Assembly (NCBI GenBank): GCA_023248495.1
Contig: JAHFEK010000002.1
Coordinates: 26,733 to 90,732, forward strand
Direction of reading: 5' to 3'
DNA length: 64,000 bases
Origin: Nitrospinales bacterium
Lineage (GTDB): Bacteria > Nitrospinota_A > UBA7883 > JACRGQ01
Numbering within the stretch: the stretch's first letter is position 1; every line of letters begins with the position of its first letter. A program made the position numbers and the translations under genes. This document shows, one piece after another, positions 42,030 to 64,000 of the stretch. Below the pieces are notes generated by a model. The model was not told the DNA's origin, did not search any database, and saw nothing but the letters and a program-made list of their open reading frames with translations.

Positions 42030-42037
42030 GCTGTAGA

Positions 42038-45054: not shown

Positions 45055-45068
45055 CTATGTCCCCCTCC

Positions 45069-45731: not shown

Positions 45732-45765
45732 GTCCCCTATCCTTTCTGGTTAAAAAATCAACCTG

Positions 45766-47322: not shown

Positions 47323-47329
47323 TTCTCCC

Positions 47330-48109: not shown

Positions 48110-48127
48110 CTTTCTACCCTCGTCTCC

Positions 48128-48994: not shown

Positions 48995-49003
48995 TTTTTC
49001 CTC

Positions 49004-50932
49004 TTAATGCTCCCCTGAAGAACCTTTTTTGGCTGCCAACATCGGCATCCAGAACATGAAAAGGACAAGGGCGATGAATACACAGACGATTACTGTAACC
49101 ACAGCCGCGGCGTAGGGCAACGTCGGCGTGAATGCGCCGGGCGAATTATCCCTGAACACCGTGTAAACGTGCCAGTGCTGGCGAATGGCCGACCGGACGT
49201 ACCCCATAAGACCCATCAACCAGGTAAAGCCGATGGTCAATGTGAAAAGGGCATACTGCGAACGAACCGGCATATTTCCCCATTTGGTTTCGCCCAGTTC
49301 TTCACTCTTATTGAAGATTTTGCCATCCATTATGAAGGAGGCAACGATAACAATGAGGGTGGTGGTAACCTGTGGAACGGAAAGACCGATACGGACGCTG
49401 GCTGGCAGATAGTAACTGTAAATACCAAGCGCCAGAATGTTGCACAAACCGGCAACGTAAAGACCAATCTGGACGGAAGTGCCGTTTTGGGCCCAAAATC
49501 CGTCACCGAGCGCCTTCTTATTGCTGCGGTTGTAAATCTGGAAGCTGAGGAACGTTAGCACGATAAGGAAGTTAACCGCCGTGTTCTTCGCGGCCATAAC
49601 CCCAAGTTTACCGAGCAACGGATGGTGAGCGCCGCCGATCTGGGTCAGTTCCGTCGAGCTCATAACCAGCGTGTGCGGGGTAAGCCATGCGAGGAACATC
49701 GTCACGATAACAATAGCGATCGGCTTGATCATAAAGCTGTACCGGTGCGAACCGTTCGAACGCGCCAAGCAGCACCAGAGGTAGTAGTTGGCGGAAAGGA
49801 ATATCGCGCCGATAAGCACCGCCTGAAGAATGAACAACCACGCGAAGGCGCCGCCCATGAGGGTGATGCCCATCTGCTGCGAATAGTCGTAAATTTCCTT
49901 GGTGAGCCAGTAACCGGCGAACGGCAACGGAAGAAGACCGATGATCGCGATGAAGAACGAGGTGTACCCCATCCAGTCATAGTGGGCCTTTTCCTGCGGC
50001 GTTTTCGCCATGAGGAACTTGTATCCCGCATACGCCGCGGTCAGCGAACCGCCATAGGCGATGTTCGCGACAAAGCGGTGGATGTTGATCGGGTTCCAAA
50101 GGTGTCCGTTGATGGCCGCCCAGACATTACCCTGGAATACGCCAGAATCATCCAATCCCGAAGGGGCCATCATGAACGATGCCCACGAGTTGGAAACCAT
50201 CATAAGGAACACGCCGGCCAAGTTTAGGCCCAAGCCCAAACCGATGTGGACGATCTTGGAGTTCCCATCGGACATCTTGTCCCACCCGTAGTAGTAGGTG
50301 TACAAAAAGAAGCTTTCCGCGAAAAACGCGAGAGCGTAAAAAATCATCACCTTGCCGAAAATACCCGTCATGTAAGTCATAAATTGGGGATAGAAAACAA
50401 CCAAAGCGATGGAAAGGAGACCTCCGAAGCTCGCGGCAAGCGAGAACCCGGTCATGGCCACCTTCATGAACTCGTGCGCCATATCATCATACCGCTTGTC
50501 CTTGGTGACAACGCCGGTGATCTCGATGAGCCACACGAAGATCGGAACCGCGAGAACGAACGCACCAAAGAAAAGGTGCAACTGGGCGATGAACCAGACG
50601 GTTAAGCGGCTGTTAAAGCCTTTGACGACCGGGTAGTCTTTCTCTTCCAGTTTCGGAGGCGGTTGAGGAGCCCATTCCGCGGGACCCTTCTTCTCCTCTT
50701 TTTTAGCTTCAGCCGCAGGGGCTGCCGCCGGGGCCGCTTCGTTAGCCCAGGCTTTTTGGGCCAAGACCGCATTGGCGGCGGACTTCAGCACCGGCTGGCT
50801 GATGTCCATATAATCGAACGAAAGCGCCGGGATTGCAAGCAGCAGGGCCAAGGCCGCGCCAAACCTGTAAACCCCAGTGCTACATTGAGATAACACTTTC
50901 TTGACATGTGAAAACATAAACCTAACCTTCAT
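49004..50932 (-). CDS. cytochrome bd subunit I (CydA)-like 'bd-like' oxidase membrane subunit
   Basis: Segments align by eye to E. coli CydA. QLHLFFGAFVLAVPIF...IEITG matches MYHFLFVPLTLG...METVY. FFAESFFLYTYYYGWDK...LNLAGVFLMMVSNSWASFMMAP matches FFLESTFVGLFFFGWDR...SNLSALWILVANGWMQNP. RSAIRQHWHVY matches EYGRQPWAI. Extra C-terminal TMs are present. The preferred start is ATG 50932 (AGGGGA upstream); the ORF track extends to 51055. Confidence 0.8.
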   Translation of the reverse strand: MKVRFMFSHVKKVLSQCSTGVYRFGAALALLLAIPALSFDYMDISQPVLKSAANAVLAQKAWANEAAPAAAPAAEAKKEEKKGPAEWAPQPPPKLEEKDYPVVKGFNSRLTVWFIAQLHLFFGAFVLAVPIFVWLIEITGVVTKDKRYDDMAHEFMKVAMTGFSLAASFGGLLSIALVVFYPQFMTYMTGIFGKVMIFYALAFFAESFFLYTYYYGWDKMSDGNSKIVHIGLGLGLNLAGVFLMMVSNSWASFMMAPSGLDDSGVFQGNVWAAINGHLWNPINIHRFVANIAYGGSLTAAYAGYKFLMAKTPQEKAHYDWMGYTSFFIAIIGLLPLPFAGYWLTKEIYDYSQQMGITLMGGAFAWLFILQAVLIGAIFLSANYYLWCCLARSNGSHRYSFMIKPIAIVIVTMFLAWLTPHTLVMSSTELTQIGGAHHPLLGKLGVMAAKNTAVNFLIVLTFLSFQIYNRSNKKALGDGFWAQNGTSVQIGLYVAGLCNILALGIYSYYLPASVRIGLSVPQVTTTLIVIVASFIMDGKIFNKSEELGETKWGNMPVRSQYALFTLTIGFTWLMGLMGYVRSAIRQHWHVYTVFRDNSPGAFTPTLPYAAAVVTVIVCVFIALVLFMFWMPMLAAKKGSSGEH

Positions 50933-51519
50933 TTTGTCCCCTAAGCCGTTAATATTCTTATTCCCCTTTAGGAAAGAGCGCCAAGCCCTGATAAGCCTGC
51001 AGAAAATAATCCACTGAAAAGAAAATAACCGCAAAAACCGCAAAGGCAGCAACAAACGTAAAAATCTTTTGGTTCAAACCATCCCCCTTTTTCAAGTTAG
51101 TACCAACTAGGTTGTTAAGAGCGCTTTCCCAATCAAAAAAACGCCGTTAAATAAATACTCTGCTAATTATTCGAAGTGTGCAAGCTGGGTTAAATCGAAA
51201 GCAACCTCCCACTTTTTCCTAACCATCCACAGCAATACTTTTGACATTCCCCCCCGGGAATGCCCCCACCTTGTTTGTGCAACACCGCTTTTGCAATTTA
51301 AAACGTGCCTTACTAAATACAAGAGCCATGCCGCAATTCGTGCAATATTAGCATAAGACCACCAAAAGCCAAGAAATATTTTCATCACTATAAAAATATT
51401 CGGCCAATGGGCGGTTTTACCCGGAAAGGTTAGTGGTTTCATGGGGCCAGCTTCCTAAATAACATGGCGAAAAAGCTTTGAAAAACCGAACCGCCTGTAC
51501 ACCACGTTAACATTGGTTG

Positions 51520-51532
51520 TAACAGGATGTTA
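51520..51532. promoter_or_regulatory. palindromic TAACA-GGA-TGTTA site (candidate operator), repeated in inverse at 51618-51628 and partly at 51634-51640
   Basis: TAACAGGATGTTA (51520-51532), TAACATCCTGT (51618-51628) and TAACAGG (51634-51640). All lie in the divergent region upstream of the ArsR-type gene. Confidence 0.3.
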
Positions 51533-51593
51533 AATACCCCCCCTTAAACGCCGGGATGCTGCGATTTTGCTTTCGTGCGGCACTTTCACCCAT

Positions 51594-51599
51594 TATAAT
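51594..51599 (+). promoter_or_regulatory. candidate -10 box (TATAAT) for the ArsR-rhodanese gene
   Basis: A perfect TATAAT 70 nt upstream of ATG 51669. The -35 is weak (TTTCGT at 17 nt). The TAACATCCTGT site lies just downstream. Confidence 0.3.
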
Positions 51600-51668
51600 G
51601 TCCGCAAGTTTTTACTGTAACATCCTGTGAAGGTAACAGGGAGGCGGGCATAATTTTATAAGGACAAA

Positions 51669-52340
51669 ATGACTAACCAAAGCCCCAAACAAATGCTCCT
51701 GGAGCAATTTGCCCGTATTGGAAAAGCGATTTCAAGCCCCACGCGGATCGAGATGCTGGAGTTCCTCGCACAAAACGAAAAAAACGTCGAGACTCTCGCG
51801 GCTATGACCAAGTCCACCGTTGCCAACACATCGCAACACTTGCAACAGCTCCGGCAGGTGGGCCTCGTCACCTCGCGCAAGGACGGGCAGCGGGTGTATT
51901 ACCGCCTTGCGGACGAAACGGCGGTTGAACTCATGATGCTCGTGCGGAAAATCGCGGAACGCAACATCGCGGAAGTCGAGCAATTGATAAACCTCTACCT
52001 CAAATCCAAAGACGCCTTTGAAGCGGTGCCGGCGGATGAACTGCTCGAACGGGTGAAAGCCGGCACGGTCATTATACTCGACGTGCGGCCGCCGGACGAA
52101 TATGCGGCGGGACACGTTCCCGGAGCCTTGAATGTGCCGTTCAAGGAACTTGAAAAGCACGTGCACAAACTGAATGCAAAGACGGAAGTAATCGCCTACT
52201 GCCGCGGACCGTACTGCCTGTTGGCGTACGACACGGTGGAAAAATTGCGCGAAAAAAACATCAAGGCCCATCGGTTGGAGGACGGATTCCCGGAATGGAA
52301 ACGCCGGGGGTTCCCGGTCGAAAAAGGGGAAAAAAAGTAA
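51669..52340 (+). CDS. ArsR/SmtB-family transcriptional regulator fused to a rhodanese domain
   Basis: wHTH ...RIEMLEFLAQNEKNVETLAAMTKSTVANTSQHLQQLRQVGLVTSRKDGQRVYYRL. Rhodanese ...ILDVRPPDEYAAGHVPGALNVP...AYCRGPYC (active-site Cys loop). Confidence 0.85.
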   Translation: MTNQSPKQMLLEQFARIGKAISSPTRIEMLEFLAQNEKNVETLAAMTKSTVANTSQHLQQLRQVGLVTSRKDGQRVYYRLADETAVELMMLVRKIAERNIAEVEQLINLYLKSKDAFEAVPADELLERVKAGTVIILDVRPPDEYAAGHVPGALNVPFKELEKHVHKLNAKTEVIAYCRGPYCLLAYDTVEKLREKNIKAHRLEDGFPEWKRRGFPVEKGEKK

Positions 52341-52496
52341 TATCACGCCCTTTACCTCGCTCTTGGGCACGGATTCATGGCGCCGCGGGAGAGCCATCCC
52401 TTATTCACCAAGGAGATTGTTTTGATGTTTAATCTTCCGCTTAATGGAATTTCATCCCCGCAGCATGAATAAAATGGGGCGTGCCGAAGAAATAAT

Positions 52497-52973
52497 ATGA
52501 GACAGCGATTACGCCGGCTGAACGATCAACGAAGAACCGCCAAGAAACACATGGAAAACAGGCTCACAATCCGCCTGTGGCTATTCTTCATCATCATGTC
52601 CACCCTTTTAATCATCGTCATCTGCCACGTTTTTGAAGGACACATAAGCGCTCTTTTGGCGGCCGGTGGTTTTGCGCTTGGCATCATTTTGGGATTTCTG
52701 GCGGGAAGGATGTTTATCATTTTTTGGCATCCCGAAACCGAGAAGGTTGTTTCGCGCCTGGATAAAGTCGGCATTGTCATTCTAGTGATGTATATCCTCC
52801 TTGCGGCCGGAAGAAGATGGTTTTTGGGACATTGGCTCCACGGGGCGGAATTGAATGCGTTCGGTCTCGCGATATTAACTGGATTGTTGTTGGGACGGTT
52901 GCTTTCAATGGCAATAAAAATAAAGAATATCTTGATAGCGGAAAATAAAATATTCGTTTCGCGGCACAAATAA
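52497..52973 (+). CDS. small integral membrane protein (4 TM)
   Basis: 158-aa hydrophobic ORF. The start could be MENRL at 52551. Confidence 0.5.
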   Translation: MRQRLRRLNDQRRTAKKHMENRLTIRLWLFFIIMSTLLIIVICHVFEGHISALLAAGGFALGIILGFLAGRMFIIFWHPETEKVVSRLDKVGIVILVMYILLAAGRRWFLGHWLHGAELNAFGLAILTGLLLGRLLSMAIKIKNILIAENKIFVSRHK

Positions 52974-52998
52974 AAAAGGGAGCCGTTTCAAGGCTCCC
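52972..52998 (-). terminator. rho-independent terminator of the NosZ-like/TPR gene block (part of REP-like copy B)
   Basis: Reverse strand reads GGGAGCC-ttgaaac-GGCTCCC followed by TTTTTTATTT, 44 nt after the stop at 53042. Confidence 0.6.
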
Positions 52999-53010
52999 CG
53001 TATCGCGATC
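52978..53010. repeat. 33-nt hairpin-forming intergenic element, copy B (REP-like)
   Basis: GGGAGCCGTttcaAGGCTCCCCgTATCGCGATC. See copy A at 5692-5724. Confidence 0.7.
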
Positions 53011-53041
53011 TTAAACGCCCGGCGGCATGGAAGCCGAAGGG

Positions 53042-53506
53042 TTACTTGCAAGCGTCCTTGTATCCCTTTGCGCAGGCATTGGAATAGTCTTCCTTGGCCT
53101 TTTTCATTTCGCCGTTTATCTCGTTTGCCTGCGCGCGGACATAATAGGCTTCACCAATATTGGGGTCCAGCTCTATGGCGCGGTTAAGATCCTTCAGGGC
53201 GGCGTCAATATCGCCCATATCCTTGGAGGCCTTGCCCCGGAGGGAATACGCGGCCGCGAATTTTGGGGATTCCTTTATCGCGTTGGTGGTCATCTCGATG
53301 ACCTTGGAATAATTCGCGCTCCCGTATGCCCTGCGCGCCTCGGTAAAATAATCGTCGGCCTTTCCGCCTTGGGCGGGGGCAGGGCCCTTCTTATCGCCAC
53401 CGCCTATGCTCATCCCGCCGAGACTGAACGCCGAAGCGCCCGAAGCGAGTGTCATAACCATCACAAGAATCAAGAGTACCGCTCTCATCTTTGCCCCCTT
53501 CTTCAC
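53042..53506 (-). CDS. secreted TPR-repeat protein
   Basis: Signal peptide plus TPR repeats (AAYSLRGKASKDMGDIDAALKDLNRAIELDPNIGEAYYVRAQA...). Confidence 0.7.
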   Translation of the reverse strand: MKKGAKMRAVLLILVMVMTLASGASAFSLGGMSIGGGDKKGPAPAQGGKADDYFTEARRAYGSANYSKVIEMTTNAIKESPKFAAAYSLRGKASKDMGDIDAALKDLNRAIELDPNIGEAYYVRAQANEINGEMKKAKEDYSNACAKGYKDACK

Positions 53507-53514
53507 AATCCTGT

Positions 53515-56394
53515 TTACGTAAGCTTGCCTAGCGCTTCAAGTATGGCCTTCCGCTCGCTTTCCGACGGATCAAGCGTTAGCGCATAATTATAATACTCTT
53601 TTGATTTGATTTCATTTTTTAACACAAAACCATAGAGCCCCGCAAGGTTTACCGCGGCCATCAAATATTGGGGATCCAGTTTAAGGGCCTCGAGGAATTC
53701 CCGTTCGGCTTCGTAGCTGCTTCCCAGGTTGGCGAAAAACATCCCCTTGAGAAAATGGGTCTGCATCCTGAAAAGCCCGCCGGTATCCATCCGCTCGGTA
53801 TCCATAAGCAATTGCATTCCCATTTCCGGCTGGTTTTTGGATAACGCGGCATACAGGGTGGCGATGTTAAGGGAAAGATGGGCGTAGCGGGCATCGGCGT
53901 TGTCGGAATTCATTTCAAGCGCGAGGCTAAAGTGCTTGGCCGCCGAGCCGATACGTCCGTCACTGAGTTCTATTTGGCCCCGCAGAAATTCCTCTTCGGA
54001 CCGGAAATAATTTTGGAATGTCTTTTCCTGGTCCGCCGATGCGAACACGGCTTTTGGCGGCACGCGGAATTTAAGGAGATTTTCAAGATTGCGCCCCTTG
54101 AGGGCGACGCCCGCCTCGTGTATGCGGGGCGCGGAAAACTCGATGTATGGACGGTCGTCGGTAACCGGCGTGACGCCCGCCGCGAACCGCCGTATCTGCC
54201 CCGCGTCCATCATGAAATTCGAAAGGAGTTGATGGACGTTCATAATACCGATCCCCTTCAGGCTTTCGGCGACCGCGCTTTTCGCCATCCCCTCCTGGAG
54301 CTTGGCGACATCCATGGGCATATCTCCATCCGCACCCACCATGATGGCATCCCATTTCGTGTACCACATCTGCGCGTTGGGAAAAACATCGATGAACGTA
54401 GCGACTAGCGCGCGGAAATCCTCCTCCGAGAGATGGTGCAACGGTATCCACTGCGAAACAATCCCCTTGTCGGCAAGCCTTTTTTTACACAGAAGATAAT
54501 ATTCCCTCGTATAAAGACTCACAATGCCGGCGTTGGAGGGAGGCGGAGGTTCGGAGGTTATCAGATCGTATTTTTCCCGCGTCGTCAGCAGGAAATTCCG
54601 CCCGTCTTCCTCCACCATGGAAAAAGAAGGGTTTTTCGCCACGTTAAAATTGGCCTCGGCGAACTTGTCCGCCGCGCCAAATACTTCGCGGGAGATATCG
54701 ACGGCGATGACCCGGTCAAGGCCGTGCGCGGCGGCGGTACCGGCGGTGCTGCCGGTTCCAAAACATACAACAAGCGCCTTCTTCGGCGAAGGATGCATCA
54801 GCAGCGGTATGTGGGCCTGCAGCCGTTCCAGCTGCAACGCCTCGCGGAACGCCCCGGCTATGGGATCGCCATTTATCCATATCCGGCTGACCGGTTTGCG
54901 GTTCGCCGAGAGATCGGAATCCACATACGATACCAACACGGTCGCGGAAGGCCCTTCCCGGTAATATTTCACCCGGCTGCCGGCTTCCAGCTTTTGAGCG
55001 CTCAGTGCAAAAGCGGGATCGCCAGCGGCAACAACACCGAAGGTTAACGCCAGCAAGCAAGCCGTCACGAAAACAACGCGCGAGCGCTCCTTCTTGTCCG
55101 AGGATTTGCCCTGAAGATAGCCACCGGCGATGATGGCCATCCACGACACCGCCACGATACCGAACCGTATCCCCATAAACGGAATAAGCAGGTACCCGGC
55201 GGCAAGTGAACCCAACACGCACCCGGCGATATTCATGGCGTAAAACCTGCCCACGGTGCCCCCCGTTTTTTCAGGCGTCGAAGAAATGGCCCCTAAGATA
55301 AGCGGAAAGCCGCCCCCCATCAGAAACGTGCAGGGAAATACTATTATCATGGAGAAAATGACCGCTTCAGCCATCGGATTGCCGCCCGGTATCACGGAAG
55401 CAAGAAAACCGCCGCCGGACGCCGCCACGCCCATCAGCTCGCGGTTGAAAAGAAGCCCCGCCAGCGAGACCAGCGCGAAGAGTCCGATGCCCATCTGAAA
55501 TCCGCCAAACAGAAACGCGCCGTTGCGCGGCGCCTTTTTCATCATACGGGCCGTTAACGCGCTCCCGGTGCCAATACCTAAAAGAAAAATCGCCAAAATC
55601 AGGGAAAATGCATAGGTCGTGTTGTTCAAAAGCAGGATGAACATTCTTGTCCAAAGGACTTCAAGGGCCATTGCGCAAAAGCCGGCAACGCCGAAAAGAA
55701 ACAGGATGGACCGGCGCGATACCATGAAGTCCTCCGCCGCCGGGGCCGCTTTCGCTTCTCCGGCGGAAACGGATACCCAGCCGGCCTCCGCCGCCAGCAG
55801 GAATGCTCCGATGCCGCATACCATGTTCATCGCCGCCCCAACCCTAAGGGTACCCGACAGACCGATATGCTCGATAAGCCAAAAACCCGCAAGAACACAT
55901 CCAACCACCGCGCCCAGCGTATTAACCGCATACAGGATACCCACGGATTTGCCGATACCCGGCTCGCGATGCGCAAGGTGGCGGCTTAACGCGGGAAGTG
56001 TGCCCCCCATCAATGCGGTCGGGATCAAAAGCGCCGATATCGCCAGAACAAAACGCAATACCATGACGTATAGAAGGTTTCCCCCGGCGCCCGGATGTAA
56101 TTGCACGTAGGCCTTTTCGAGGTGCTGAAGAATAAAGGGAAATAGAACCATATACACCGCAATGGCTAACTCAAGGGCGGCATAAAGCCGTATCGGCGCC
56201 GCGCCACGATCCAGTTTTTTCCCAAAGTATATCGCGCCGAAGCCAAGCCCTCCCATAAACGCGACCAAAACCGCGCTCACCGCGTAAATGCTTACGCCCA
56301 GCAAAAGGGTCAGCTCCCGCACCCAGACAATCTCGTAGATAAGACCGGCGGCGCCTGAAATGAAGAAAAGAATGAAAAGGAGAGCCCTTTTCAC
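53515..56394 (-). CDS. fused polytopic membrane domain / spermidine-synthase-like methyltransferase-fold domain / C-terminal TPR
   Basis: 959 aa. About 12-14 TM (MFS-like) come first. Then ...KKALVVCFGTGSTAG...VIAVDIS...YDLITSEPPPP (SpeE-like SAM-fold motifs), then TPR repeats. Confidence 0.7.
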   Translation of the reverse strand: MKRALLFILFFISGAAGLIYEIVWVRELTLLLGVSIYAVSAVLVAFMGGLGFGAIYFGKKLDRGAAPIRLYAALELAIAVYMVLFPFILQHLEKAYVQLHPGAGGNLLYVMVLRFVLAISALLIPTALMGGTLPALSRHLAHREPGIGKSVGILYAVNTLGAVVGCVLAGFWLIEHIGLSGTLRVGAAMNMVCGIGAFLLAAEAGWVSVSAGEAKAAPAAEDFMVSRRSILFLFGVAGFCAMALEVLWTRMFILLLNNTTYAFSLILAIFLLGIGTGSALTARMMKKAPRNGAFLFGGFQMGIGLFALVSLAGLLFNRELMGVAASGGGFLASVIPGGNPMAEAVIFSMIIVFPCTFLMGGGFPLILGAISSTPEKTGGTVGRFYAMNIAGCVLGSLAAGYLLIPFMGIRFGIVAVSWMAIIAGGYLQGKSSDKKERSRVVFVTACLLALTFGVVAAGDPAFALSAQKLEAGSRVKYYREGPSATVLVSYVDSDLSANRKPVSRIWINGDPIAGAFREALQLERLQAHIPLLMHPSPKKALVVCFGTGSTAGTAAAHGLDRVIAVDISREVFGAADKFAEANFNVAKNPSFSMVEEDGRNFLLTTREKYDLITSEPPPPSNAGIVSLYTREYYLLCKKRLADKGIVSQWIPLHHLSEEDFRALVATFIDVFPNAQMWYTKWDAIMVGADGDMPMDVAKLQEGMAKSAVAESLKGIGIMNVHQLLSNFMMDAGQIRRFAAGVTPVTDDRPYIEFSAPRIHEAGVALKGRNLENLLKFRVPPKAVFASADQEKTFQNYFRSEEEFLRGQIELSDGRIGSAAKHFSLALEMNSDNADARYAHLSLNIATLYAALSKNQPEMGMQLLMDTERMDTGGLFRMQTHFLKGMFFANLGSSYEAEREFLEALKLDPQYLMAAVNLAGLYGFVLKNEIKSKEYYNYALTLDPSESERKAILEALGKLT

Positions 56395-57497
56395 CTGAAT
56401 ATCTTCTCAGTGGTCTTTATTTTAACCCGCATCTTTTTTGATTCGTCAAGCAACGCTGCGGTGTCCAGCATGCCCAGCTTCCCGGTACCGGACTCGGTGA
56501 ACCAGACGCGCCCCTTAGTATCGATCGCCAGTGAATTTGGCTTCGATTCCCCTTCGGAAAGATCGAACATTTGCATCGTGGCGGTTTTTGTGTTGAAACG
56601 GAGCAAGCGGTTATCGGTATGTTGAACCATCCAAAGGTTATCCGACTGGTCCATCGCTATTTCACTGGTTCCCTTGTTTTTCGGCATATCGAAAGTCTCT
56701 TGCTTCGCGGTTTTAGGATCGAAACGCACAATCATGTTATCGACCATTTGAAGATACCAAATCATCCCCTTGGAATCGAACACCGTGCCGAGAGGAGACT
56801 TCATGGCGGGCGATATGCCCCATTCGCGAAACCTCTTCTTTTCGGGATCAAACATGGCGATCTTGTTGCCGCTGCGTTCGACAAACCACATATTACCCGA
56901 GCGATCCTCCGTCAAATCAAAACTGCTGCTGTTCGGGGTCGGGATAATGAACTTTTCGAATTTTTCGGTGCCGGGCCGGAAACGGATCAGCATGTCATTG
57001 TTCCAACCTAGCACCCAAATATCGCCGGTGCGCGCGGCATAAACGATGATCGGATCGACATTCTTGAAAGGAATAACGTATTCCTTGAATGTTTTTGTTT
57101 TTGGATCGAACTTGGATAACACGTTAACGTCCTGCTCAACCAACCATAGAATGCCGTTCTTGTCCGCGGTCATATCCATGGCGTGGCTTTTACCCGAGAG
57201 AATGGGATATTCCTTCATCACGCCGGATTTAGAATCAAAACTTACCAGCGCGTTGGCATTGAACTCGATAAACCAGACGGTGGCGTCCCCTGTGGTGGTA
57301 ACAGCGGTGGGATAGCTCTCCTTCTGCGGAATGTCGTACTCCGTTATCAACTCGCCGCCACGAGCCGCCGGAACAATGGCAACCGATACCATCAGGGCCA
57401 ACACGGTTGCCCTGAAGGAAGTCCCGCTAAAAAAACCGGCAATCCGTGAAAGAGGCCCACCTTGAAAAGCGCGGTTGGGAAATGTCGAAAACAACAT
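56391..57497 (-). CDS. secreted 7-bladed beta-propeller, Vgb (virginiamycin B lyase)/lactonase-like repeats
   Basis: Seven repeats of the form D..G.(I/L/M)W(F/L/V).E...N.(L/I)..FDP.T..F.E(Y/F).(I/L)P. No Cys-rich or heme motifs. Confidence 0.65.
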   Translation of the reverse strand: MLFSTFPNRAFQGGPLSRIAGFFSGTSFRATVLALMVSVAIVPAARGGELITEYDIPQKESYPTAVTTTGDATVWFIEFNANALVSFDSKSGVMKEYPILSGKSHAMDMTADKNGILWLVEQDVNVLSKFDPKTKTFKEYVIPFKNVDPIIVYAARTGDIWVLGWNNDMLIRFRPGTEKFEKFIIPTPNSSSFDLTEDRSGNMWFVERSGNKIAMFDPEKKRFREWGISPAMKSPLGTVFDSKGMIWYLQMVDNMIVRFDPKTAKQETFDMPKNKGTSEIAMDQSDNLWMVQHTDNRLLRFNTKTATMQMFDLSEGESKPNSLAIDTKGRVWFTESGTGKLGMLDTAALLDESKKMRVKIKTTEKIFR

Positions 57498-57517
57498 GCG
57501 AAGCTCTCTGTCCGGAT

Positions 57518-58750
57518 TTAGTGGGAGTGGCCGCTTGGCGCTTCATGAACATGGGGCATCGCTTTGCCTTTGGGCACCGATGAACGGATTAGCATCGATA
57601 TCTGATTAGCGCCCCTGTCGCTTTCGGTAAACCACACGTCCCCTTTCGAATCGACGGACAGGCTCATCGGTTGCGCGCCCATCGAGGGAAGGTCGAAGGA
57701 GGCGAAACTTACGGACTTCTGGTCAAAATAACCGATAGCGTTCATCATGCTGTCAATGTACCAAATATACCCGTCTTTAGCCGCGGTTATGGCCTGGGGA
57801 GCGGTATTGTAGCCCGGGGGATCGGTCAGCCCAAACATTCCTTTGTCGGTATAAAGAACGCCGATCTGCTTGGAGCGCAATAAGCAAAACCACAGCATCC
57901 CTTCTTTGCCGAACTGCATCTTCCCCGGCTGCGACTTCACGGCGGGAATCGGGAATTTCTTATACTTTTTGGTTTCCGGCTCATACCTGCCGATATAGTT
58001 CTCGCTAACCTCGCTGAGCCATACAACGCCCGCCGTATCCACCGCTATCCCCATTAACTGGCTTCCGGCCGGAAGCGGAATTTCCGCTATGGTCTTCTTA
58101 GCCACGTCAAGGACGCCGAATTTCGACCCGTTTTTTTCCACAAACCATATCCGCCCGCGCGGATCTTCAGCCAAATCATACGGCTGGGCATTTTTGGTCG
58201 GCATGAGGAACTCGGTCATTTCCTCGGTGACCGGATCGAACCGGACGACGCTGTTGCCCAGATGCATCACAAACCAAACGATATCGTTTTTTCCAACAAT
58301 TACGTTGCCGGGACTGCCGACACTGTACACGTTAAAGGCTTTGTCCGGCGATGTCCGGTTTTTCGAATCGTATTTCCAGTCTGATTCCGGCAATCCTTCG
58401 GTGGAGGGAATCCGGTATTCCTTGAATTCCCCTTTCGAGGGATCTAACCTCACCAAGGAATTGGCGCTCATCAAGGTGCACCATATGTTGTCTTTTGAAT
58501 CAACCGCGATGCCGTAAGGTGTGGCATAACGGGCAGGCACCGGATACTGAACGATGCGCACATCGCCCTTAACCTCTTTCGGCGCGACGATGGTAACTTT
58601 TGGCTTTACTTTTACGCCTAAACCCGTTGGCGCGCCCGCAGCGTCACCAACCGAGACAAAGGCCAGTACCAACACCAGCCCCGCTACAGTCAAGATTGAT
58701 CGAGGTGTAAACGTCCGCCGGGAAATGCTACCAGGTGAACGTAGGTTCAT
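57518..58750 (-). CDS. Tat-targeted 7-bladed Vgb/lactonase-like beta-propeller with His-rich C-terminal tail
   Basis: N-terminus ...GSISRRTFTPRSILTVAGLVLVLAF (S-R-R-x-F twin-arginine motif). Same repeat family as 56391-57497. The C-terminus ends ...AMPHVHEAPSGHSH. Confidence 0.65.
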   Translation of the reverse strand: MNLRSPGSISRRTFTPRSILTVAGLVLVLAFVSVGDAAGAPTGLGVKVKPKVTIVAPKEVKGDVRIVQYPVPARYATPYGIAVDSKDNIWCTLMSANSLVRLDPSKGEFKEYRIPSTEGLPESDWKYDSKNRTSPDKAFNVYSVGSPGNVIVGKNDIVWFVMHLGNSVVRFDPVTEEMTEFLMPTKNAQPYDLAEDPRGRIWFVEKNGSKFGVLDVAKKTIAEIPLPAGSQLMGIAVDTAGVVWLSEVSENYIGRYEPETKKYKKFPIPAVKSQPGKMQFGKEGMLWFCLLRSKQIGVLYTDKGMFGLTDPPGYNTAPQAITAAKDGYIWYIDSMMNAIGYFDQKSVSFASFDLPSMGAQPMSLSVDSKGDVWFTESDRGANQISMLIRSSVPKGKAMPHVHEAPSGHSH

Positions 58751-59441
58751 ACATATGCCTCATCTGCCAATTTGCATCCTTGTAGCCCTGTACTTCGCTT
58801 TGGCCGGAATTCCCGCCTGATCCGGCTTCGGCCTCTATTTTTCCGGCCCGATACTTGCCAACCCCGATTTGCAACGCGCGTTCCGTCGCATAATACTTCG
58901 CGACATTCGCGGGAGGAATGGCCATTCTTGGCCCCATCGAGGCGTTGTGGCACGAATCGCAACCAAGGATTTTTGCCTGATGACCGCTCCTATAAACCCC
59001 GACAAGTATGACAAAAGCGAATATCAACGCCGGCAATGCATAGATGACGCTTCTTGCAAGCCCCTGCATCCCCCGCGCTTTTTCAATGATGTTTTTAAGC
59101 CCCGGGATGCGGTCAAACGGCACCCTATGCATCGACGGCAGGAAAATAAAAAACACCAACGTTACAATCGGAATGACCGGCATTAGAACAAGATATTTTT
59201 TTAAGCTGCCGCCAAAATACCAAAATCCCTGCCAAAAAAGCAGAAATATCCATTCAGGCCCGGGAATGTTCTCACCTTCGTCCGGCATCGGGACTTGGTC
59301 AGGGGCCAAAAACGGCACGGGATATTTGATCGACAAAAATACCATAACCGCCACCAAAGCGGTCATAAGGATCGAAAGGATCAAAAGGTACGTGGGCCAC
59401 CAGAATAATCCTTTTTTCTTAGCGATGTTTGTAATGCTCAT
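58728..59441 (-). CDS. cytochrome b C-terminal part (subunit IV/PetD-like) fused to a monoheme c domain
   Basis: The Qo-site motif PEWY appears as GPEWIFLLFW. Three TM, then CDSCHN. ATG 59441 is preceded by GGGGGAG 7 nt upstream. Confidence 0.75.
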   Translation of the reverse strand: MSITNIAKKKGLFWWPTYLLILSILMTALVAVMVFLSIKYPVPFLAPDQVPMPDEGENIPGPEWIFLLFWQGFWYFGGSLKKYLVLMPVIPIVTLVFFIFLPSMHRVPFDRIPGLKNIIEKARGMQGLARSVIYALPALIFAFVILVGVYRSGHQAKILGCDSCHNASMGPRMAIPPANVAKYYATERALQIGVGKYRAGKIEAEAGSGGNSGQSEVQGYKDANWQMRHMYEPTFTW

Positions 59442-59466
59442 GGCTGGACTCCCCCTATTTGCCGAA

Positions 59467-60099
59467 TCATACTTTTTTGGCCAATCCAAGCCGTCTCGTC
59501 AAAATGATATGAACGAAAAGAACGGCGAAAAACAGTATCGGCAACATTATGATATGCACCGCGAAATTGCGACCAAGCGTGAATGAACTCAAAATGAGAT
59601 CTTTAACCGATCCGCCAACAAGCGGAATCAACTCAAGCCAGTCGGCCCAGATAATCAGTTCCCAATAACTTCTCCAGTCCCACGGCGCGATAATGCCGGA
59701 GATCAGAAAAAGAAAGAAAATCAGCCCCAAGACAAGCCCGGTGAACCAATTTAATTCGCGCGGATTTTTATACGCTTTCCTTCCCATGGTGTGAAACACA
59801 TGCAACATGACAAAAAGAGCGCCAAACGTAGCACTCCACCGGTGAAGGCTTCGCATGATGGCTCCCAGATTCGACAACTGACACATATCCCGAATGCTCT
59901 GGTGCGCAAGATTCGGTTCCGGAACATAGTACATGACCATGTAAAAGCCGGTTAAAAACTGAATACCGACACAGCCGATAGTCAGGCCGCTGAAGAAGTG
60001 CCATATGGTGGCGCTTTCAGAAAGCTCAAATGCAATATGATTGTTATAAAATTGAACAATCCCAAGGCGCTCGTCAATCCATCCAATAATTTTTTTCAT
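59467..60099 (-). CDS. cytochrome b6-type N-terminal subunit (PetB-like)
   Basis: Four TM. The bis-His pairs are LHRWSATFGALFVMLH (H-x13-H) and VHIIMLPILFFAVLFVH (H-x14-H, b6-type spacing). Confidence 0.85.
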   Translation of the reverse strand: MKKIIGWIDERLGIVQFYNNHIAFELSESATIWHFFSGLTIGCVGIQFLTGFYMVMYYVPEPNLAHQSIRDMCQLSNLGAIMRSLHRWSATFGALFVMLHVFHTMGRKAYKNPRELNWFTGLVLGLIFFLFLISGIIAPWDWRSYWELIIWADWLELIPLVGGSVKDLILSSFTLGRNFAVHIIMLPILFFAVLFVHIILTRRLGLAKKV

Positions 60100-60107
60100 G
60101 ATTAGCC

Positions 60108-60608
60108 TTATTTAGTTGCCAGTTCCGTGCCATTTGCGTCTTGTGGAGCCTTGATGAACGCTGTCTCATCAATTGTCTCCGCATTGAAATCTATCTGCCA
60201 TTCATTGCTTGTCTTATCAAGGATGAGATTCAATTGGCTTGTCGTCTTGAAACTGTCCTCAAATTTTGACGGAGCGGATACTTCCAGTTTTACCACCGCG
60301 ACCCAGTCGCCATTTTTGTTTGGCTCTTTCGGAAGAAGCGACTGAAGCACTTTTATCTTTGCTTGGGATGTCCCGTAATTTTCCGTCCATTTTCTGAATG
60401 AATCGATATTCATGACGCCATATTTTGTCGATACCATTTTATATGCTTCCTGGTTCGCGAGGCGTCCGCCATCAGCCAGCAGCTTGAAAAATCGGCTGGC
60501 GACTTCCTCGGGCTTGGCATCAGGAAACTTCGCCTGAGCTTTTGTGCAAGCGGAAAATACGCCGAATGCGAGAAATAAACAGATAAAAGCTCTCATGACA
60601 CGCTTCAT
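60108..60608 (-). CDS. lipoprotein of unknown function (NTF2/SnoaL-like fold guessed)
   Basis: Lipobox-like GVFSAC. No Rieske (CxH..CxxH) or Met-rich Cu motifs. Confidence 0.5.
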   Translation of the reverse strand: MKRVMRAFICLFLAFGVFSACTKAQAKFPDAKPEEVASRFFKLLADGGRLANQEAYKMVSTKYGVMNIDSFRKWTENYGTSQAKIKVLQSLLPKEPNKNGDWVAVVKLEVSAPSKFEDSFKTTSQLNLILDKTSNEWQIDFNAETIDETAFIKAPQDANGTELATK

Positions 60609-60677
60609 AACTTAAACGATCCCCCGATTATTCAACGATGCCAACGCATATTACATCGTAAAAGCAATGTTCCGCAA

Positions 60678-60711
60678 CAAAAATAAAGGGGCCGGTTTTT
60701 CAACCGGCCCC
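60678..60711 (-). terminator. rho-independent terminator/attenuator after the NosZ-like gene
   Basis: Reverse strand reads GGGGCCGGTT-gaaa-AACCGGCCCC followed by TTTATTTTTG, 41 nt after the stop at 60752. Confidence 0.75.
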
Positions 60712-60751
60712 TCTTTGTACCGCCAATCAGGCAGAAGGAAAAACCAACCAG

Positions 60752-62554
60752 TTAGATAACCGGTTCGCTGCCTTCATTCAACTTGTTCATCAGCTTGTTG
60801 GTGCCGACGATGAATTGGCGCTCGCCTGGAGCCAACATGGTATCCTGTTTGGACATTTCGTCGTAATCGCCGACGCCCATGGAGGCCTTGCCGCCTGGGG
60901 GATCAACGAAGAACGTGCCGCGCATTTCAAGGTGCAGCGGTCCACAGAACTGCTGGCAGTAGTATTCGAATTCGCCAGCCTTATCAGCAACGAATTCGTC
61001 AACAGCGGACATACCGCGAACGGCGAATATCATCGTTCGCGGACCGTAATAGCCAGCGGCCGTGAAGCCCATGGTGACGTCCGGGTTCTTTGTAAGACCG
61101 GCCGCCTTGTCTATATTGGTATAGATAATGCGAACTTTCGCGCCCTTGGGGACGTGGATGAAGCGGGGCACGTAGCCGTAGGAGAATCCTTTGACTCTCA
61201 CAACGTATACGTCACCTTCCTTCGTCACGCCGGGTTTGCCGTCGTCACGGGGAATCCAGGTGCGGACGCTGTCAGCCGTATGTGTCGGCTCGAGCTGCGA
61301 ATGCACGTTCGCGGGGAGACCGGGCCGACCCGTCGCGCCAAAGCTGACGTGGTAGTCGCCGAGGTCATAGCCCTTTTCGAACAGATCTTCACCTTTGCCG
61401 GTATTCCATCTCTGGATGTACGTGGCAAATATCTGGCGCCCTTCGTGCGGCTCGCCGTCAACCGGCGCCAACTTAACGGATTTACCGTAGGTCGGGCTGG
61501 TTTCGTCGATATCCTGTTCCTCGAAGTTAACGGCAAAGATGATGCCGGTCGGGGTAAACAGGCCGGTGGAGAACTTGTTCTGGGACATATAGTAAGCATC
61601 GTCCGGGGCGATCGAGTTGTGACCGCAGCGGTAGTGGATCGGGAATTCGTCAACCAACTGCATGCGCATCACGTCGGTCTTCGAAGTGGAGTCCGACACG
61701 AAGCAGGAGTTGTAGACGTATTTACCGAGCGAGTCAAACTGGTTGTGCAGGGGACCGGCGCCTACCGGGATAACCTTGCGCACGCGCAGTTGATCCACGT
61801 CGATGATGGAAATCGTGGCGGAAAGCTTGTCGCAGACGGAAACCATGCGGCCCGTGGGGCTGACGTTGGTGCCGTGCGGGTTTTTGCCGACCGGGATTTC
61901 CTTGATCAGCTTGAACGGATCCTGGCTGAACACCATGACCGCCGAGTGATAGTAGTTACCCGAGAAGACGTATCTGCCGTCTTTGCTGGTATCCGGATAG
62001 TCCGGTGCGCTGGGGGCCGGCGGTATATCAAGAACCGTCGTCGCGCCATCGGAAAGCCGCAGTTTCAGCATTTTGCCGGTGAGTTCGCCCGTGGCAAACA
62101 GGTATTTGCCGTTCGGGGAGAGCGCCGCGCTGTGGTGAATGCCGAACGGTTTCGGCAAAGCGAAAATCCGCTCCACCCAGCCGGTCTGCAAGTTCACTTC
62201 ATCAATCGTGTCCGAGCCCTTGTCGGAAACATACAGGTACTTGCCATCGGGCGTACCGTTGTTGTTACCCGCGTTGGAGCCGGAGAACGGGAAATTGTGC
62301 ATGTCGGTACCGCACTTGATGTGGCGGTACGTCTTCATGGAAGGAATACCGATGACGCCGATCGCGCCGTCAGTGCCGCCTGCATCATACAGGATGGCGT
62401 AGTCGCGCAACGGATAGTCGCTATCCTGGGGCGCGATGACGTGCCAGTCACGCGCATCTTTATCCGTAAGGATAACTTTTTTTGCTTCCGCGGGCAGGTT
62501 AAGAGCAACCAGCGCGACGGAAAGAGTCAATAAAGAAAATAGCTTTTTTTTCAA
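60752..62554 (-). CDS. nosZ: divergent nitrous-oxide-reductase (NosZ)-like protein: Sec signal + compact beta-propeller + CuA cupredoxin
   Basis: NosZ signature strings occur in the canonical order: IHH, VGAGPLHNQFD, HYRCGH, DGEPHE, YTNID....DVTMGF and FVADKAGEFEYYCQQFCGPLHLEM. The last contains the CuA C-x3-C-x3-H-x2-M motif, nt 60923-60958. Confidence 0.75.
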   Translation of the reverse strand: MKKKLFSLLTLSVALVALNLPAEAKKVILTDKDARDWHVIAPQDSDYPLRDYAILYDAGGTDGAIGVIGIPSMKTYRHIKCGTDMHNFPFSGSNAGNNNGTPDGKYLYVSDKGSDTIDEVNLQTGWVERIFALPKPFGIHHSAALSPNGKYLFATGELTGKMLKLRLSDGATTVLDIPPAPSAPDYPDTSKDGRYVFSGNYYHSAVMVFSQDPFKLIKEIPVGKNPHGTNVSPTGRMVSVCDKLSATISIIDVDQLRVRKVIPVGAGPLHNQFDSLGKYVYNSCFVSDSTSKTDVMRMQLVDEFPIHYRCGHNSIAPDDAYYMSQNKFSTGLFTPTGIIFAVNFEEQDIDETSPTYGKSVKLAPVDGEPHEGRQIFATYIQRWNTGKGEDLFEKGYDLGDYHVSFGATGRPGLPANVHSQLEPTHTADSVRTWIPRDDGKPGVTKEGDVYVVRVKGFSYGYVPRFIHVPKGAKVRIIYTNIDKAAGLTKNPDVTMGFTAAGYYGPRTMIFAVRGMSAVDEFVADKAGEFEYYCQQFCGPLHLEMRGTFFVDPPGGKASMGVGDYDEMSKQDTMLAPGERQFIVGTNKLMNKLNEGSEPVI

Positions 62555-62572
62555 GAGTTACCACCCCCTCCG

Positions 62573-62989
62573 TTATTTTTCGTGCTTGTAATAAACGCCG
62601 GCCTTGGCGTCTGCGTCAAGCCGTTTAATCAAGTAGCTGTTGGCATCAAGAATGACGATCCTTCTGGCCACGTAGTCGTTGCCGGTCAGATTCCATCCGT
62701 ACACCGCGACGAGATCGCCAGCCTTCAACTCGGTAAACTTTTTGAAGACGCCCCTGTCGCCGGTCATCACGTATGCATCGGGATGCAACTTCATCGTGTA
62801 CTTCTTGCTATCCTTTTCAAATTTGGTAGCAATCGTAAGCTCACGATTTCCCAATTTCTCTATCGTGCCAATCTGCAAATTGTCTTTGTTGGTGGAACCG
62901 TTGCCCATTTCGGCAACCGCGTTCTGGGCCATAAAGACCATCGAGACCAGAGCAAACACGAAAGCAAAACCCATTGACTTTATTTTCAT
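62573..62989 (-). CDS. small secreted protein of unknown function, first gene of the NosZ-like unit
   Basis: Signal peptide MKIKSMGFAFVFALVSMVFMAQNAVA. 18 nt upstream of the NosZ-like gene. No motif recognised. Confidence 0.55.
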   Translation of the reverse strand: MKIKSMGFAFVFALVSMVFMAQNAVAEMGNGSTNKDNLQIGTIEKLGNRELTIATKFEKDSKKYTMKLHPDAYVMTGDRGVFKKFTELKAGDLVAVYGWNLTGNDYVARRIVILDANSYLIKRLDADAKAGVYYKHEK

Positions 62990-63303
62990 CTGCTATCACC
63001 CCCCCTATATTCCAAAAAAGTTAAATTAGAAAACTTTTAAACCCTCACCTTTTAATCGACGAGACGCCCTTTCGGACCGTCTCGTACGACACTGGCAAAA
63101 TATACCACAAGTACCCGCACCCAAATCAAGAAAATAATTGAGCACTCCAATTCCCGGATAATATAGGTGTTTTTAAAATCCGAATCAACCCCAATTTGAT
63201 GACGCGGAGGCGGGCAATTACCGCTAAAAATCGGGACATTTTACCCAAATGGGTCATAGACGCGCCCCACGCGGAAAATGGCCGGTCAAATCGCGCCTCA
63301 CGC

Positions 63304-64000
63304 TTACGGTTTTGCCCCCATTTTACCCATCATATTCGCAATGGCCTTTCGTGACATGAGCCGCGACATAAACGTAAAAATGTTATTCACCGCGCCCGAT
63401 ATAACCGTCGGCTTGCAACGGCATTTAAGCGCTTTTAACGCGGTATCCACCAGATGTTCGGGCGTCTCCGTCATCAGCTTCGGGGTCGCCGCCGTGCCGC
63501 CGCCCGAGTGTTCATTGAACTTTGTCGAGGTGATTCCCGGGCACAGCCCCATCACATACACCCCGCGCGGCTTCTGCTCGAACCACAACGACTCGGAAAA
63601 AGAGGTGACAAACGCCTTGGTGGCGGAATACAGCCCGATGATCGGCATCGGCATGAAGGCAAGCGCCGAGGAGACGTTTATCAACGCGTCCCCCTCGGTG
63701 GCCGTCTTCAGATAGGCGTGGGAGAGCTTCACCACCGTCTCGCAATTGAGCGTTAACACCTCGACATGCCTCTTCAGGGGAATATCGGTGAACGGGCCCA
63801 TGGCGGCTATTCCCGCGTTGTTTATCAAAAGATCAAAATGCGCGGCTGAAATGGCCTGCATGATTGCATCCTGTCCGGCCGCGGTTGTGAGGTCGGCTGC
63901 GATATACGAATGGCCGCCGCCTATCTCGGCCATCAACCGTTGAAGATTTTCTTCATTCCGGGCAACGGCGGTGACCTCGTAACCTTCGGCGGCCAACCGC
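63304..64000 (-). CDS. short-chain dehydrogenase/reductase (SDR), N-terminus beyond window end
   Basis: LINNAGI, SSALAF and YSATKAF (YxxxK) motifs. The TGxxxGxG motif is missing because the ORF runs off the window. Confidence 0.8.
   Translation of the reverse strand, partial: RLAAEGYEVTAVARNEENLQRLMAEIGGGHSYIAADLTTAAGQDAIMQAISAAHFDLLINNAGIAAMGPFTDIPLKRHVEVLTLNCETVVKLSHAYLKTATEGDALINVSSALAFMPMPIIGLYSATKAFVTSFSESLWFEQKPRGVYVMGLCPGITSTKFNEHSGGGTAATPKLMTETPEHLVDTALKALKCRCKPTVISGAVNNIFTFMSRLMSRKAIANMMGKMGAKP

Follow-up and report, generated by a model that had tools for sequence, protein, structure and literature searches.

A block of nine co-directional genes on the minus strand, at positions 53042-62989 of the 64,000 nucleotide (nt) stretch of the Nitrospinales bacterium contig JAHFEK010000002.1 analysed here (the window), is probably a clade III (lactonase-type) nitrous oxide reductase (nos) locus of an uncultured, Nitrospinales-like member of the Nitrospinota, with a Rieske-less quinol module as its predicted electron donor. 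In gene order the block encodes a secreted protein of the NOV5WD8W family, the reductase (L-NosZ), a lipoprotein, a cytochrome b6-like subunit, a subunit-IV-like/haem c protein, two propellers, an MFS-like/spermidine-synthase-like (SpeE-like)/TPR fusion and a TPR protein. The nine genes were found at exactly the positions given in an initial annotation made from the sequence alone, which had also proposed that they form a module of a type not known from the literature. The latter proposal does not stand, since the enzyme is a published clade III L-NosZ and the 138 residue protein encoded upstream of it belongs to the published NOV5WD8W family. Nor is the combination of missing accessory genes and nearby cytochromes new, as PMC13477213 already describes clade III as lacking the canonical nos accessory genes and having cytochrome and transporter genes nearby. 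The block represents the published clade III system in well-preserved form and does not establish a new class of system.

The L-NosZ gene (60752-62554, minus strand), the second of the block, encodes a 600 residue protein with a Sec-type signal peptide and starts at a TTG codon with a GGAGGGGG Shine-Dalgarno sequence upstream. The L-NosZ family was reportedly defined by He et al. (Nature 2025;646:152) and is known here through the NCBIfam model NF052460 and citing papers. This model is the best NCBIfam match of the window protein at 591 bits, compared with 157 bits for the clade II and 113 bits for the clade I model (TIGR04246 and TIGR04244, both far from reached at a cut-off of 625 bits). The clade III motif filter of the original study, as quoted in a passage of the MiDAS preprint, combines a length of 400-900 residues with the motifs CX2FCX3HXEM, DXHH/GXHH, PHG, GPLH and EPH, and the window L-NosZ passes it with 600 residues, CQQFCGPLHLEM, GIHH, NPHG, GPLH and EPHE. 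Invariant across 81 homologues are His86, His140, His141, His203, His227, His270, His307, His312 and His370, together with Cys533, Cys537, His541 and Met544. Its alignment to solved NosZ covers the propeller and CuA domains, and that to solved clade I NosZ only short local stretches. It shares 50-59% identity with L-NosZ members that score above the family cut-off, while identity is 68% or higher for about 45 database homologues; those of the latter with a named source are all from Nitrospinota and are annotated as "lactonase family". The closest genome locus, at 95% identity, is that of another Nitrospinales metagenome-assembled genome (MAG; locus L001). From this profile and residue evidence the window protein appears likely to be an N2O reductase of the L-NosZ type, its catalysis being predicted.

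For a survey of gene neighbourhoods, a check that had been proposed in the initial annotation, we took one genome per species and searched 80 loci with 10-kb flanks by tblastn, using the nine window proteins as queries. NOV5WD8W, L-NosZ, the lipoprotein, cytochrome b, the subunit-IV-like/haem c protein, both propellers and the SpeE-like fusion are kept in 18 of the 27 Nitrospinota loci (one of the 18 is cut within the fusion gene), and many of these loci also have the TPR gene. Contig ends truncate eight of the remaining loci, and the last one, L020, is considered below. The core of this arrangement, running from L-NosZ through the lipoprotein, cytochrome b and subunit-IV-like/haem c protein to the two propellers, recurs in Nitrospirota, Desulfobacterota, Alpha- and Gammaproteobacteria and Magnetococcales. 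Where a lipoprotein gene was detected it lies directly 3' of L-nosZ, in 46 loci from several phyla. The fusion and TPR genes were found by tblastn in Nitrospinota loci only, with the TPR gene following the fusion gene in about 10 of them. Some Nitrospinota loci have a second copy of the fusion gene upstream, and one Desulfobacterota-type locus encodes, upstream of L-nosZ, a 760 residue protein with a weak SpeE match. The cytochrome b, the subunit-IV-like/haem c protein and the propellers thus travel with the NosZ-like gene across phyla, and the description of the block as a coherent syntenic unit around a NosZ-type enzyme without canonical nos accessory genes is supported. The co-occurrence of the SpeE-like fusion was borne out within the Nitrospinota loci only; outside the Nitrospinota the fusion was not detected by tblastn. 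Together with NOV5WD8W, the MFS/SpeE/TPR fusion is almost wholly confined to Nitrospinota loci.

Clusters outside the Nitrospinota add a dihaem cytochrome c of about 314 residues, a family-less protein of about 175 residues anchored by a transmembrane (TM) helix, an ABC ATPase with an ABC-2 permease, and a GldG-like protein (L085, 16483-21443; L084, 15287-18891; L036, L037, L039, L046, L050, L051, L054 and L065). None of these is in the window. The ABC ATPase, ABC-2 permease and GldG-like set presumably corresponds to the "NosF/NosY-like" genes of PMC13477213. The TM-anchored protein has conserved RC(S/T)xCH and YCxRCGPPF motifs; considered as a possible relative of NOV5WD8W or of the lipoprotein, it proved unrelated to either (hhalign probability <3%). 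Gallionellales, Nitrosomonadales and Zetaproteobacteria have no cytochrome b cassette, and several of them have the propeller pair on the opposite strand at a distance of about 10 kb.

The fourth gene of the block (59467-60099, minus strand) encodes the cytochrome b6-like dihaem subunit, a protein of 210 residues that matches Pfam PF00033 with 103 bits against a threshold of 27. Its best solved relative is cytochrome b6 of the b6f complex, matched over the full length with an E value of 1.7e-34, and the haem-ligand residues His86, His100, His182 and His197 are conserved in its orthologues. By our reading of the b6 alignment, the protein has no counterpart of the Cys to which haem ci is bound in b6. 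The NCBIfam cytochrome b6 model PRK03735 gives 141 bits, short of its cut-off of 325, and the second-best NCBIfam match is the ExtP model NF040969, with 127 bits against a cut-off of 290. The next gene (58728-59489, minus strand) encodes the subunit-IV-like/haem c protein, of 253 residues if translated from the TTG at 59489 or 237 residues from the ATG at 59441. It has three TM helices, with an invariant P-E-W just past helix 1 and an invariant CxxCH (C177/C180/H181) directly after helix 3, which is where the topology places the haem domain. The C-terminal stretch YKDANWQxRHxYEPTxTW, invariant or nearly so, holds candidate sixth haem ligands. Two database relatives of this protein (P0235 and P0247) are fused to cytochrome b, and a distant homologue, P0233, again lies in such a cassette. 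A single-gene fusion of the two proteins, 347 residues long and 39% identical, is also present away from L-nosZ in the same MAG as L001 (L089, 8001-9044; JAHFEJ010000072), and the Rieske-less module is thus not limited to a single copy or context. Given the conserved haem ligands, the PEW and CxxCH motifs and the full-length likeness to b6, the route from quinol through haem c to CuA that had been suggested earlier is plausible.

The first gene of the block (62573-62989, minus strand) lies 18 nt upstream of L-nosZ and encodes a secreted protein of 138 residues with a signal-like N-terminus. Over its full length it matches NCBIfam NF052405 (NOV5WD8W family nitrogen cycling protein) with 199 bits, above the cut-off of 170. 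The gene immediately precedes L-nosZ in each of the 27 Nitrospinota loci and, elsewhere, in one Nitrospirota locus only (L028). In the FESNov catalogue NOV5WD8W adjoins nosZ, is predicted to have a CusF-like fold and is proposed as a substitute for NosL (PMC10849945). The His/Met/Met(/Trp) metal site of a CusF-type Cu(I) chaperone is not conserved. Among 29 orthologues no column of Met, His or Cys is conserved at 90% or more, the conserved residues being mostly charged or aromatic, and positions 66, 69 and 75 vary (L/M, H/L/Q and M/Q/H, respectively). Because conserved Met, His and Cys are missing, the copper-chaperone idea is without sequence support for NOV5WD8W.

The lipoprotein (60108-60608, minus strand; third gene, 166 residues, lipobox FSAC) has no Pfam, NCBIfam or PHROGs family, and a PHROGs search with the three family-less proteins of the block gave no match. 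There is no conserved Cys, His or Met among its orthologues. Its AlphaFold2 model has a predicted local distance difference test (pLDDT) score of 68.5, and the fold matches are weak (E value 8.5e-3 or worse) and all to NTF2-like proteins, so that the lipoprotein is probably NTF2-like on the strength of this model; no NosL-like match was returned by the fold search.

The sixth and seventh genes encode propellers of the Vgb_lyase family (Pfam PF24684), the first a periplasmic protein of 410 residues (57518-58750, minus strand; 166 bits) and the second a protein of 368 residues with a signal-like N-terminus (56391-57497, minus strand; 137 bits; cut-off 50 for both), syntenic with the first across phyla. 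The best PDB match of the first propeller is 2qc5, with an E value of 2e-36. Across 36-38 orthologues the only conserved residues are those of the repeat scaffold (W, P, G, D, N and F), with no His, Cys or Met among them, and the earlier designation of the propellers as cofactor-capable is not supported. Streptogramin lyase function is likewise unsupported for both, with 108-121 bits against the curated Vgb(A)/Vgb(B) cut-off of 600 and no conserved His. The first propeller had been labelled a Tat substrate; a twin-arginine motif is indeed present in the window protein and absent from the 79%-identical orthologue in L001, its closest relative, and Tat export was therefore rejected as a conserved feature. 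In most orthologues of this propeller the C-terminus is a TM helix followed by a basic tail, and a His-rich C-terminus (MPHVHEAPSGHSH) is found in the window, L001, L002, L025 and L043.

The eighth gene (53515-56394, minus strand) encodes the MFS-like/spermidine-synthase-like/TPR fusion of 959 residues, which scores 108.6 bits against NCBIfam NF037959 (fused MFS/spermidine synthase; cut-off 40) and 47 bits against Pfam Spermine_synth. It has about 12-13 hydrophobic segments, a conserved Gly-rich nucleotide loop (G546xG548xT550AG) and a conserved D597-G-R. The ninth gene (53042-53506, minus strand) encodes a secreted TPR protein of 154 residues that matches several TPR Pfam families and has a signal-like N-terminus. 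For the NosZ-related propeller/cupredoxin protein, the cytochrome b, the two propellers, the membrane/SpeE-like/TPR fusion and the TPR protein, the Pfam and NCBIfam results are in line with the labels that these genes had been given.

Recomputed from the coordinates of the open reading frames (ORFs), the intergenic spacings along the block are +18, +143, +8, -23, -23, +20, -4 and +8 nt, in agreement with the earlier range of -23 to +20 nt save for one spacer of 143 nt. The hairpin with T-run noted after the NosZ-like gene and the terminator noted at the end of the block were both found. The former is an intrinsic-terminator-like element (60675-60714, minus strand) within the 143-nt spacer 3' of L-nosZ, consisting of a 13-bp stem with 8 GC pairs and a 4-nt loop at 60714-60685, followed by ATTTTTGTTG. 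A hairpin and T-run stand 16-56 nt past the L-nosZ stop codon in 27 of 27 Nitrospinota loci and in 10 Desulfobacterota-type loci; across these 37 loci the energies range from -15 to -37 kcal/mol, and the stem sequences are unrelated while the position is kept. Such a hairpin would set a high ratio of L-nosZ (with NOV5WD8W) to accessory-gene expression, acting through partial termination or through stabilization of the transcript 3' end. The terminator-like element that closes the block (52977-52999, minus strand) has an 8-bp stem with 6 GC pairs followed by TTTTTATTTG. An Rfam scan of 51000-64000 gave no match, hence no riboswitch or known RNA in the spacers. Upstream, a consensus scan gave a candidate sigma-70-type promoter, TTGATT-17-TATATT (63160-63188, minus strand), about 170 nt ahead of the first gene; this putative element is a pattern match at 9 of 12 consensus positions, in a stretch conserved between the window and L001. 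Inspection by eye of the region upstream of the first gene revealed no correctly spaced GG-N10-GC of a sigma-54 -24/-12 promoter.

Pfam scans of 39 ORFs across the window returned no NosD, NosL, NosR-type or ABC family; the ORFs beyond those 39 (ketosynthases, FabG, PNPase and a histidine kinase) were read by eye. No match in the window was obtained by tblastn when the NosFY-like ABC pair of a relative served as query. For another contig, whose 138 residue protein is identical, the gene calls over the 10 kb that lie upstream of its block include no nos accessory genes. The earlier remark that no nosR, nosD, nosF, nosY or nosL could be recognized thus holds for the ORFs tested by Pfam and tblastn. 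The NosZ scores are too low for a canonical clade I or clade II nos cluster, and no nosDFYL, nosR or nosB stands alongside in the window. That the module is self-contained, as had also been suggested, is not shown by the window alone, and the clusters of relatives outside the Nitrospinota also include a dihaem cytochrome c and an ABC-2 transporter of the NosFY-like kind.

In the mechanism that we propose, the b6-like and subunit-IV-like/haem c proteins would form a Rieske-less, QcrBC-like quinol dehydrogenase. Quinol would be oxidized at a PEW-type site on the periplasmic side, and electrons would pass from the periplasmic haem c domain to the CuA of L-NosZ and on to a CuZ-type cluster, at which N2O would be reduced to N2. 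The lipoprotein and the propellers would most likely tether or assemble the soluble L-NosZ at the membrane module and would not carry electrons, because they have no conserved redox or metal ligands, membrane anchors are present, and the Nitrospinota clusters have no soluble dihaem cytochrome. A more far-reaching version, which we consider unlikely, places L-NosZ in a membrane-tethered quinol:N2O oxidoreductase supercomplex, in which the Rieske-less module would reduce CuA directly and the lipoprotein, the propellers, NOV5WD8W and the SpeE-like and TPR proteins would replace the whole of NosDFYL/NosL/NosR for docking and for the copper-sulfide centre.

Several observations weigh against the assignment of the block as a clade III locus fed by a Rieske-less quinol module. 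At 591 bits the window L-NosZ does not reach the curated equivalog cut-off of NF052460, which is 700 bits. The first CuA His of solved NosZ (DDLTHGF in 2iwf) is replaced by Met495 (NPDVTMGF) in the window protein, as it is by Met in 81 of 81 homologues, and judging from this alignment the CuA of the L-NosZ family may have the ligand set Met/Cys/Cys/His/Met. No Rieske family was found by Pfam in the nine block proteins nor in the relatives' cassettes examined, which would make the quinol chemistry unlike that of any characterized bc complex. Homology of the subunit-IV-like/haem c protein to PetD was not detected by Pfam, by a PDB profile search (only weak cytochrome c matches) or by a fold search, which gave nothing for an AlphaFold2 model with a pLDDT of 61; the label "PetD-like" remains an argument from architecture, the protein resembling the subunit IV family without being a demonstrated member of it. 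At L020 (7347-10113), from the Nitrospinia-class MAG OFTM173, only the first five genes are kept, with no propellers or fusion nearby, and the subunit-IV-like/haem c gene is followed by housekeeping genes (a TatD/radical-SAM fusion and a MiaB-like enzyme). A strong terminator stands between L-nosZ and the partner genes, which makes their co-transcription putative, and the scaffold role that we consider most likely for the lipoprotein and propellers is inferred from absent ligands and membrane anchors. The first two of these points would also fit a Nitrospinota protein that is a diverged NosZ relative with another substrate, its cassette being a quinol-linked periplasmic redox module. The Nitrospinota sequences score 90-130 bits under the L-NosZ cut-off while proteobacterial members pass it (566-607 bits for four Nitrospinota sequences including that of the window, 674-696 for Desulfobacterota and 770-804 for Hyphomicrobiales and Gallionellales), and the Nitrospinota subclade has an insertion of 22-25 residues and a C-terminal extension. 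The sub-cut-off score is, however, a property of this subclade and not of the window protein alone; the Met replacement, all other ligand positions and the accessory cassette are common to members above the cut-off; and secondary sources place Nitrospinota among the clade III hosts of the founding study (PMC13477213, PMC13502197), the former listing Nitrospirota and Desulfobacterota among other hosts as well. A different substrate therefore seems improbable to us.

How the copper centres are built raises a second alternative, in which only the cytochrome pair serves electron transfer, while NOV5WD8W, the lipoprotein, both propellers, the fusion with the SpeE-like domain and the TPR protein would chiefly mature CuA and CuZ by a route independent of NosDFYL/NosL. 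The Cu-site residues are all kept although canonical assembly genes were not found, which implies some route of assembly; TPR proteins often act as assembly factors, and the first propeller of the window has its His-rich tail. Thioredoxin-like and FGE-sulfatase genes recur nearby in relatives, and NOV5WD8W has been proposed as a CusF-like copper chaperone (PMC10849945). However, conserved Met, His or Cys is found in none of NOV5WD8W, the lipoprotein and the two propellers, the His-rich tail is limited to near relatives of the window and gives way to a TM anchor elsewhere, the lipoprotein fold matches only NTF2-like proteins, and among the surveyed loci the SpeE-like fusion and TPR gene were detected only in Nitrospinota. 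We therefore regard a mainly maturation-related role as rather unlikely. An independent operon downstream of L-nosZ, with adjacency reflecting only an island of respiratory genes, would account for the strong intrinsic-terminator-like hairpin that separates L-nosZ from the downstream genes, for the paralogue in the closest MAG, a cytochrome b/subunit-IV-like/haem c fusion encoded apart from L-nosZ, and for the fact that L-nosZ also adjoins a cluster (OR-N, below) that mostly occurs without it. This is very improbable, as the same order directly follows L-nosZ in 46 loci from several phyla and the position of the hairpin is conserved, as expected of a regulated element internal to an operon. 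Database matches are also few for the subunit-IV-like/haem c protein (107) and the lipoprotein (17), the named ones coming from the same phyla and P0233 lying in a cassette.

Comparison with known systems places the block closest to other clade III clusters, with which it shares the enzyme family, the absence of canonical accessory genes, nearby cytochromes and the core cassette. It differs in that the Nitrospinota locus adds NOV5WD8W, the MFS/SpeE/TPR fusion and the TPR gene, whereas Desulfobacterota and proteobacterial clade III clusters have a dihaem cytochrome c, a TM-anchored CxxCH/CxxC protein and a NosFY-like ABC-2 transporter, all of which the window is without. Clade II nos clusters likewise have a Sec-type NosZ and, by nosZ, a membrane quinol module predicted to feed CuA via haem c, but they keep nosD, nosF, nosY and nosL (and nosB), none of which was found in the window. 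Their modules reportedly comprise NosGH/NosC1C2 or, in Wolinella succinogenes, a Rieske/cytochrome bc complex (Hein et al. 2017), whereas the quinol module of the block is without a Rieske or NapGH-type Fe-S subunit. With the QcrABC complex of the Bacillus type and with b6f (PetB and PetD), the block shares a split cytochrome b followed by a three-helix protein with a PEW(Y) motif and a C-terminal haem c, the QcrC of Bacillus being subunit IV fused to cytochrome c; in contrast to these complexes it has no Rieske gene and no haem ci Cys, and its second protein is without PetD homology detectable by Pfam, profile or fold search. ExtP (NF040969) modules also combine a b6-like cytochrome b with a c-type haem, without Rieske, beside a periplasmic terminal reductase, and the Cbc complexes of Geobacter are Rieske-less cytochrome b quinol-oxidizing modules. 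Unlike in the ExtP and Cbc systems, the partner in the block is a monohaem subunit-IV fusion and not a multihaem cytochrome, and the operon context is different. Finally, small secreted NOV5WD8W and the lipoprotein flank the reductase gene as NosL does in NosDFY-NosL/CusF systems, but there are no NosD, NosL or ABC matches in the block, the small proteins have no conserved Met, His or Cys, and the lipoprotein model is NTF2-like.

About 2 kb downstream of the block, at 44671-51055 (minus strand), lies an OR-N-type cytochrome bd-like cluster of six genes, encoding by Pfam a 683 residue CydA-like protein, four c-type cytochromes and a dihaem c/EB_dh protein. OR-N is a cytochrome bd-like family of putative O2 reductases (Murali et al., preprint) that is conserved in Nitrospinota (Kop et al.). 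In 17 proteobacterial species loci L-nosZ has an OR-N cluster within 10 kb, and in four more it has part of one (the loci listed are L032, L038, L045, L046, L048, L053, L055, L058, L062, L064, L067, L070, L072, L073, L075, L076, L078 and L081). In the Gallionellales locus L081 (3024-16962), L-nosZ and a dihaem cytochrome c are located between the OR-N structural genes and two further genes, which at Gallionella-type loci encode a Usp/PCP_red protein of 590 residues and a radical-SAM/SPASM/PCP_red protein of 712 residues. In nosZ-less loci (compare L097, L102, L114 and L115) the same two genes directly follow the OR-N genes, and L-nosZ therefore looks inserted into the OR-N operon. When long metagenome OR-N loci were chosen by the CydA-like protein, 2 of 36 carried L-nosZ. 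We accordingly rejected strict dependence, that is, an OR-N cluster dedicated to L-NosZ: OR-N has its own function, and the link with L-nosZ is one-directional. It is a reasonable guess that the two share c-type electron donors or low-oxygen regulation.

Between the L-nos block and the OR-N cluster, and divergent from them, are genes for an ArsR-family HTH-rhodanese fusion (51669-52340, plus strand) and a small membrane protein (52497-52973, plus strand). L001 has both genes as well, L009 has that of the regulator and L043 that of the small membrane protein; the ArsR-rhodanese protein may be a local regulator. In two Nitrospinota lineages (an ENA contig of sample ERZ27297709; L083, 1-2936) genes with FGE-sulfatase domains occur upstream of the cluster, at a distance of a few kb. 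These domains belong to a family that includes copper-dependent enzymes and the nirK-linked NirV, and thioredoxin-like AhpC-TSA/Redoxin genes recur near clade III clusters. The products of both are possible helpers in copper-site or haem maturation.

Two further gene groups were observed elsewhere in the window, both on the minus strand. A large lipid or polyketide-like biosynthetic cluster occupies 8452-34624. Pfam identified in it an aromatic amino-acid ammonia-lyase, two B12-binding radical-SAM enzymes, an MMPL transporter, a LolA-like protein, a glycosyltransferase, lipid-A-type acyltransferases, PagL, an AMP-ligase and an FAD oxidoreductase, while several ketosynthases (ACSS motif), a radical-SAM-like ORF (22439-23722) and FabG were recognized by eye. 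The cluster resembles those of the aryl-polyene type, with extra radical-SAM genes. At 39129-42700 there is a 966 residue fusion of a URO-D/MtaA-like methyltransferase, a 2Fe-2S ferredoxin domain and an RACo corrinoid-activation module; a B12-binding corrinoid protein adjoins it, and a sigma-54 response regulator is encoded beside both.

For N2O, a major greenhouse gas, the only biological sink known is N2O reductase, whose clade III was recognized only in 2025. A 2024 survey of Nitrospinota that predates the definition of this clade scored nosZ as absent in every genome analysed (PMC10839748), and automatic annotation misses the window locus because its L-NosZ scores under the curated cut-off. 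The locus described here is that of a Nitrospinota genome with a full clade III cassette. Its conserved partner set provides candidates for the clade III electron donor, in the Rieske-less b6/subunit-IV-haem c pair, and for the assembly of the copper centres without NosDFYL/NosL. If the supercomplex described above were true, it would represent a second, unrelated solution to CuZ biogenesis and electron supply.

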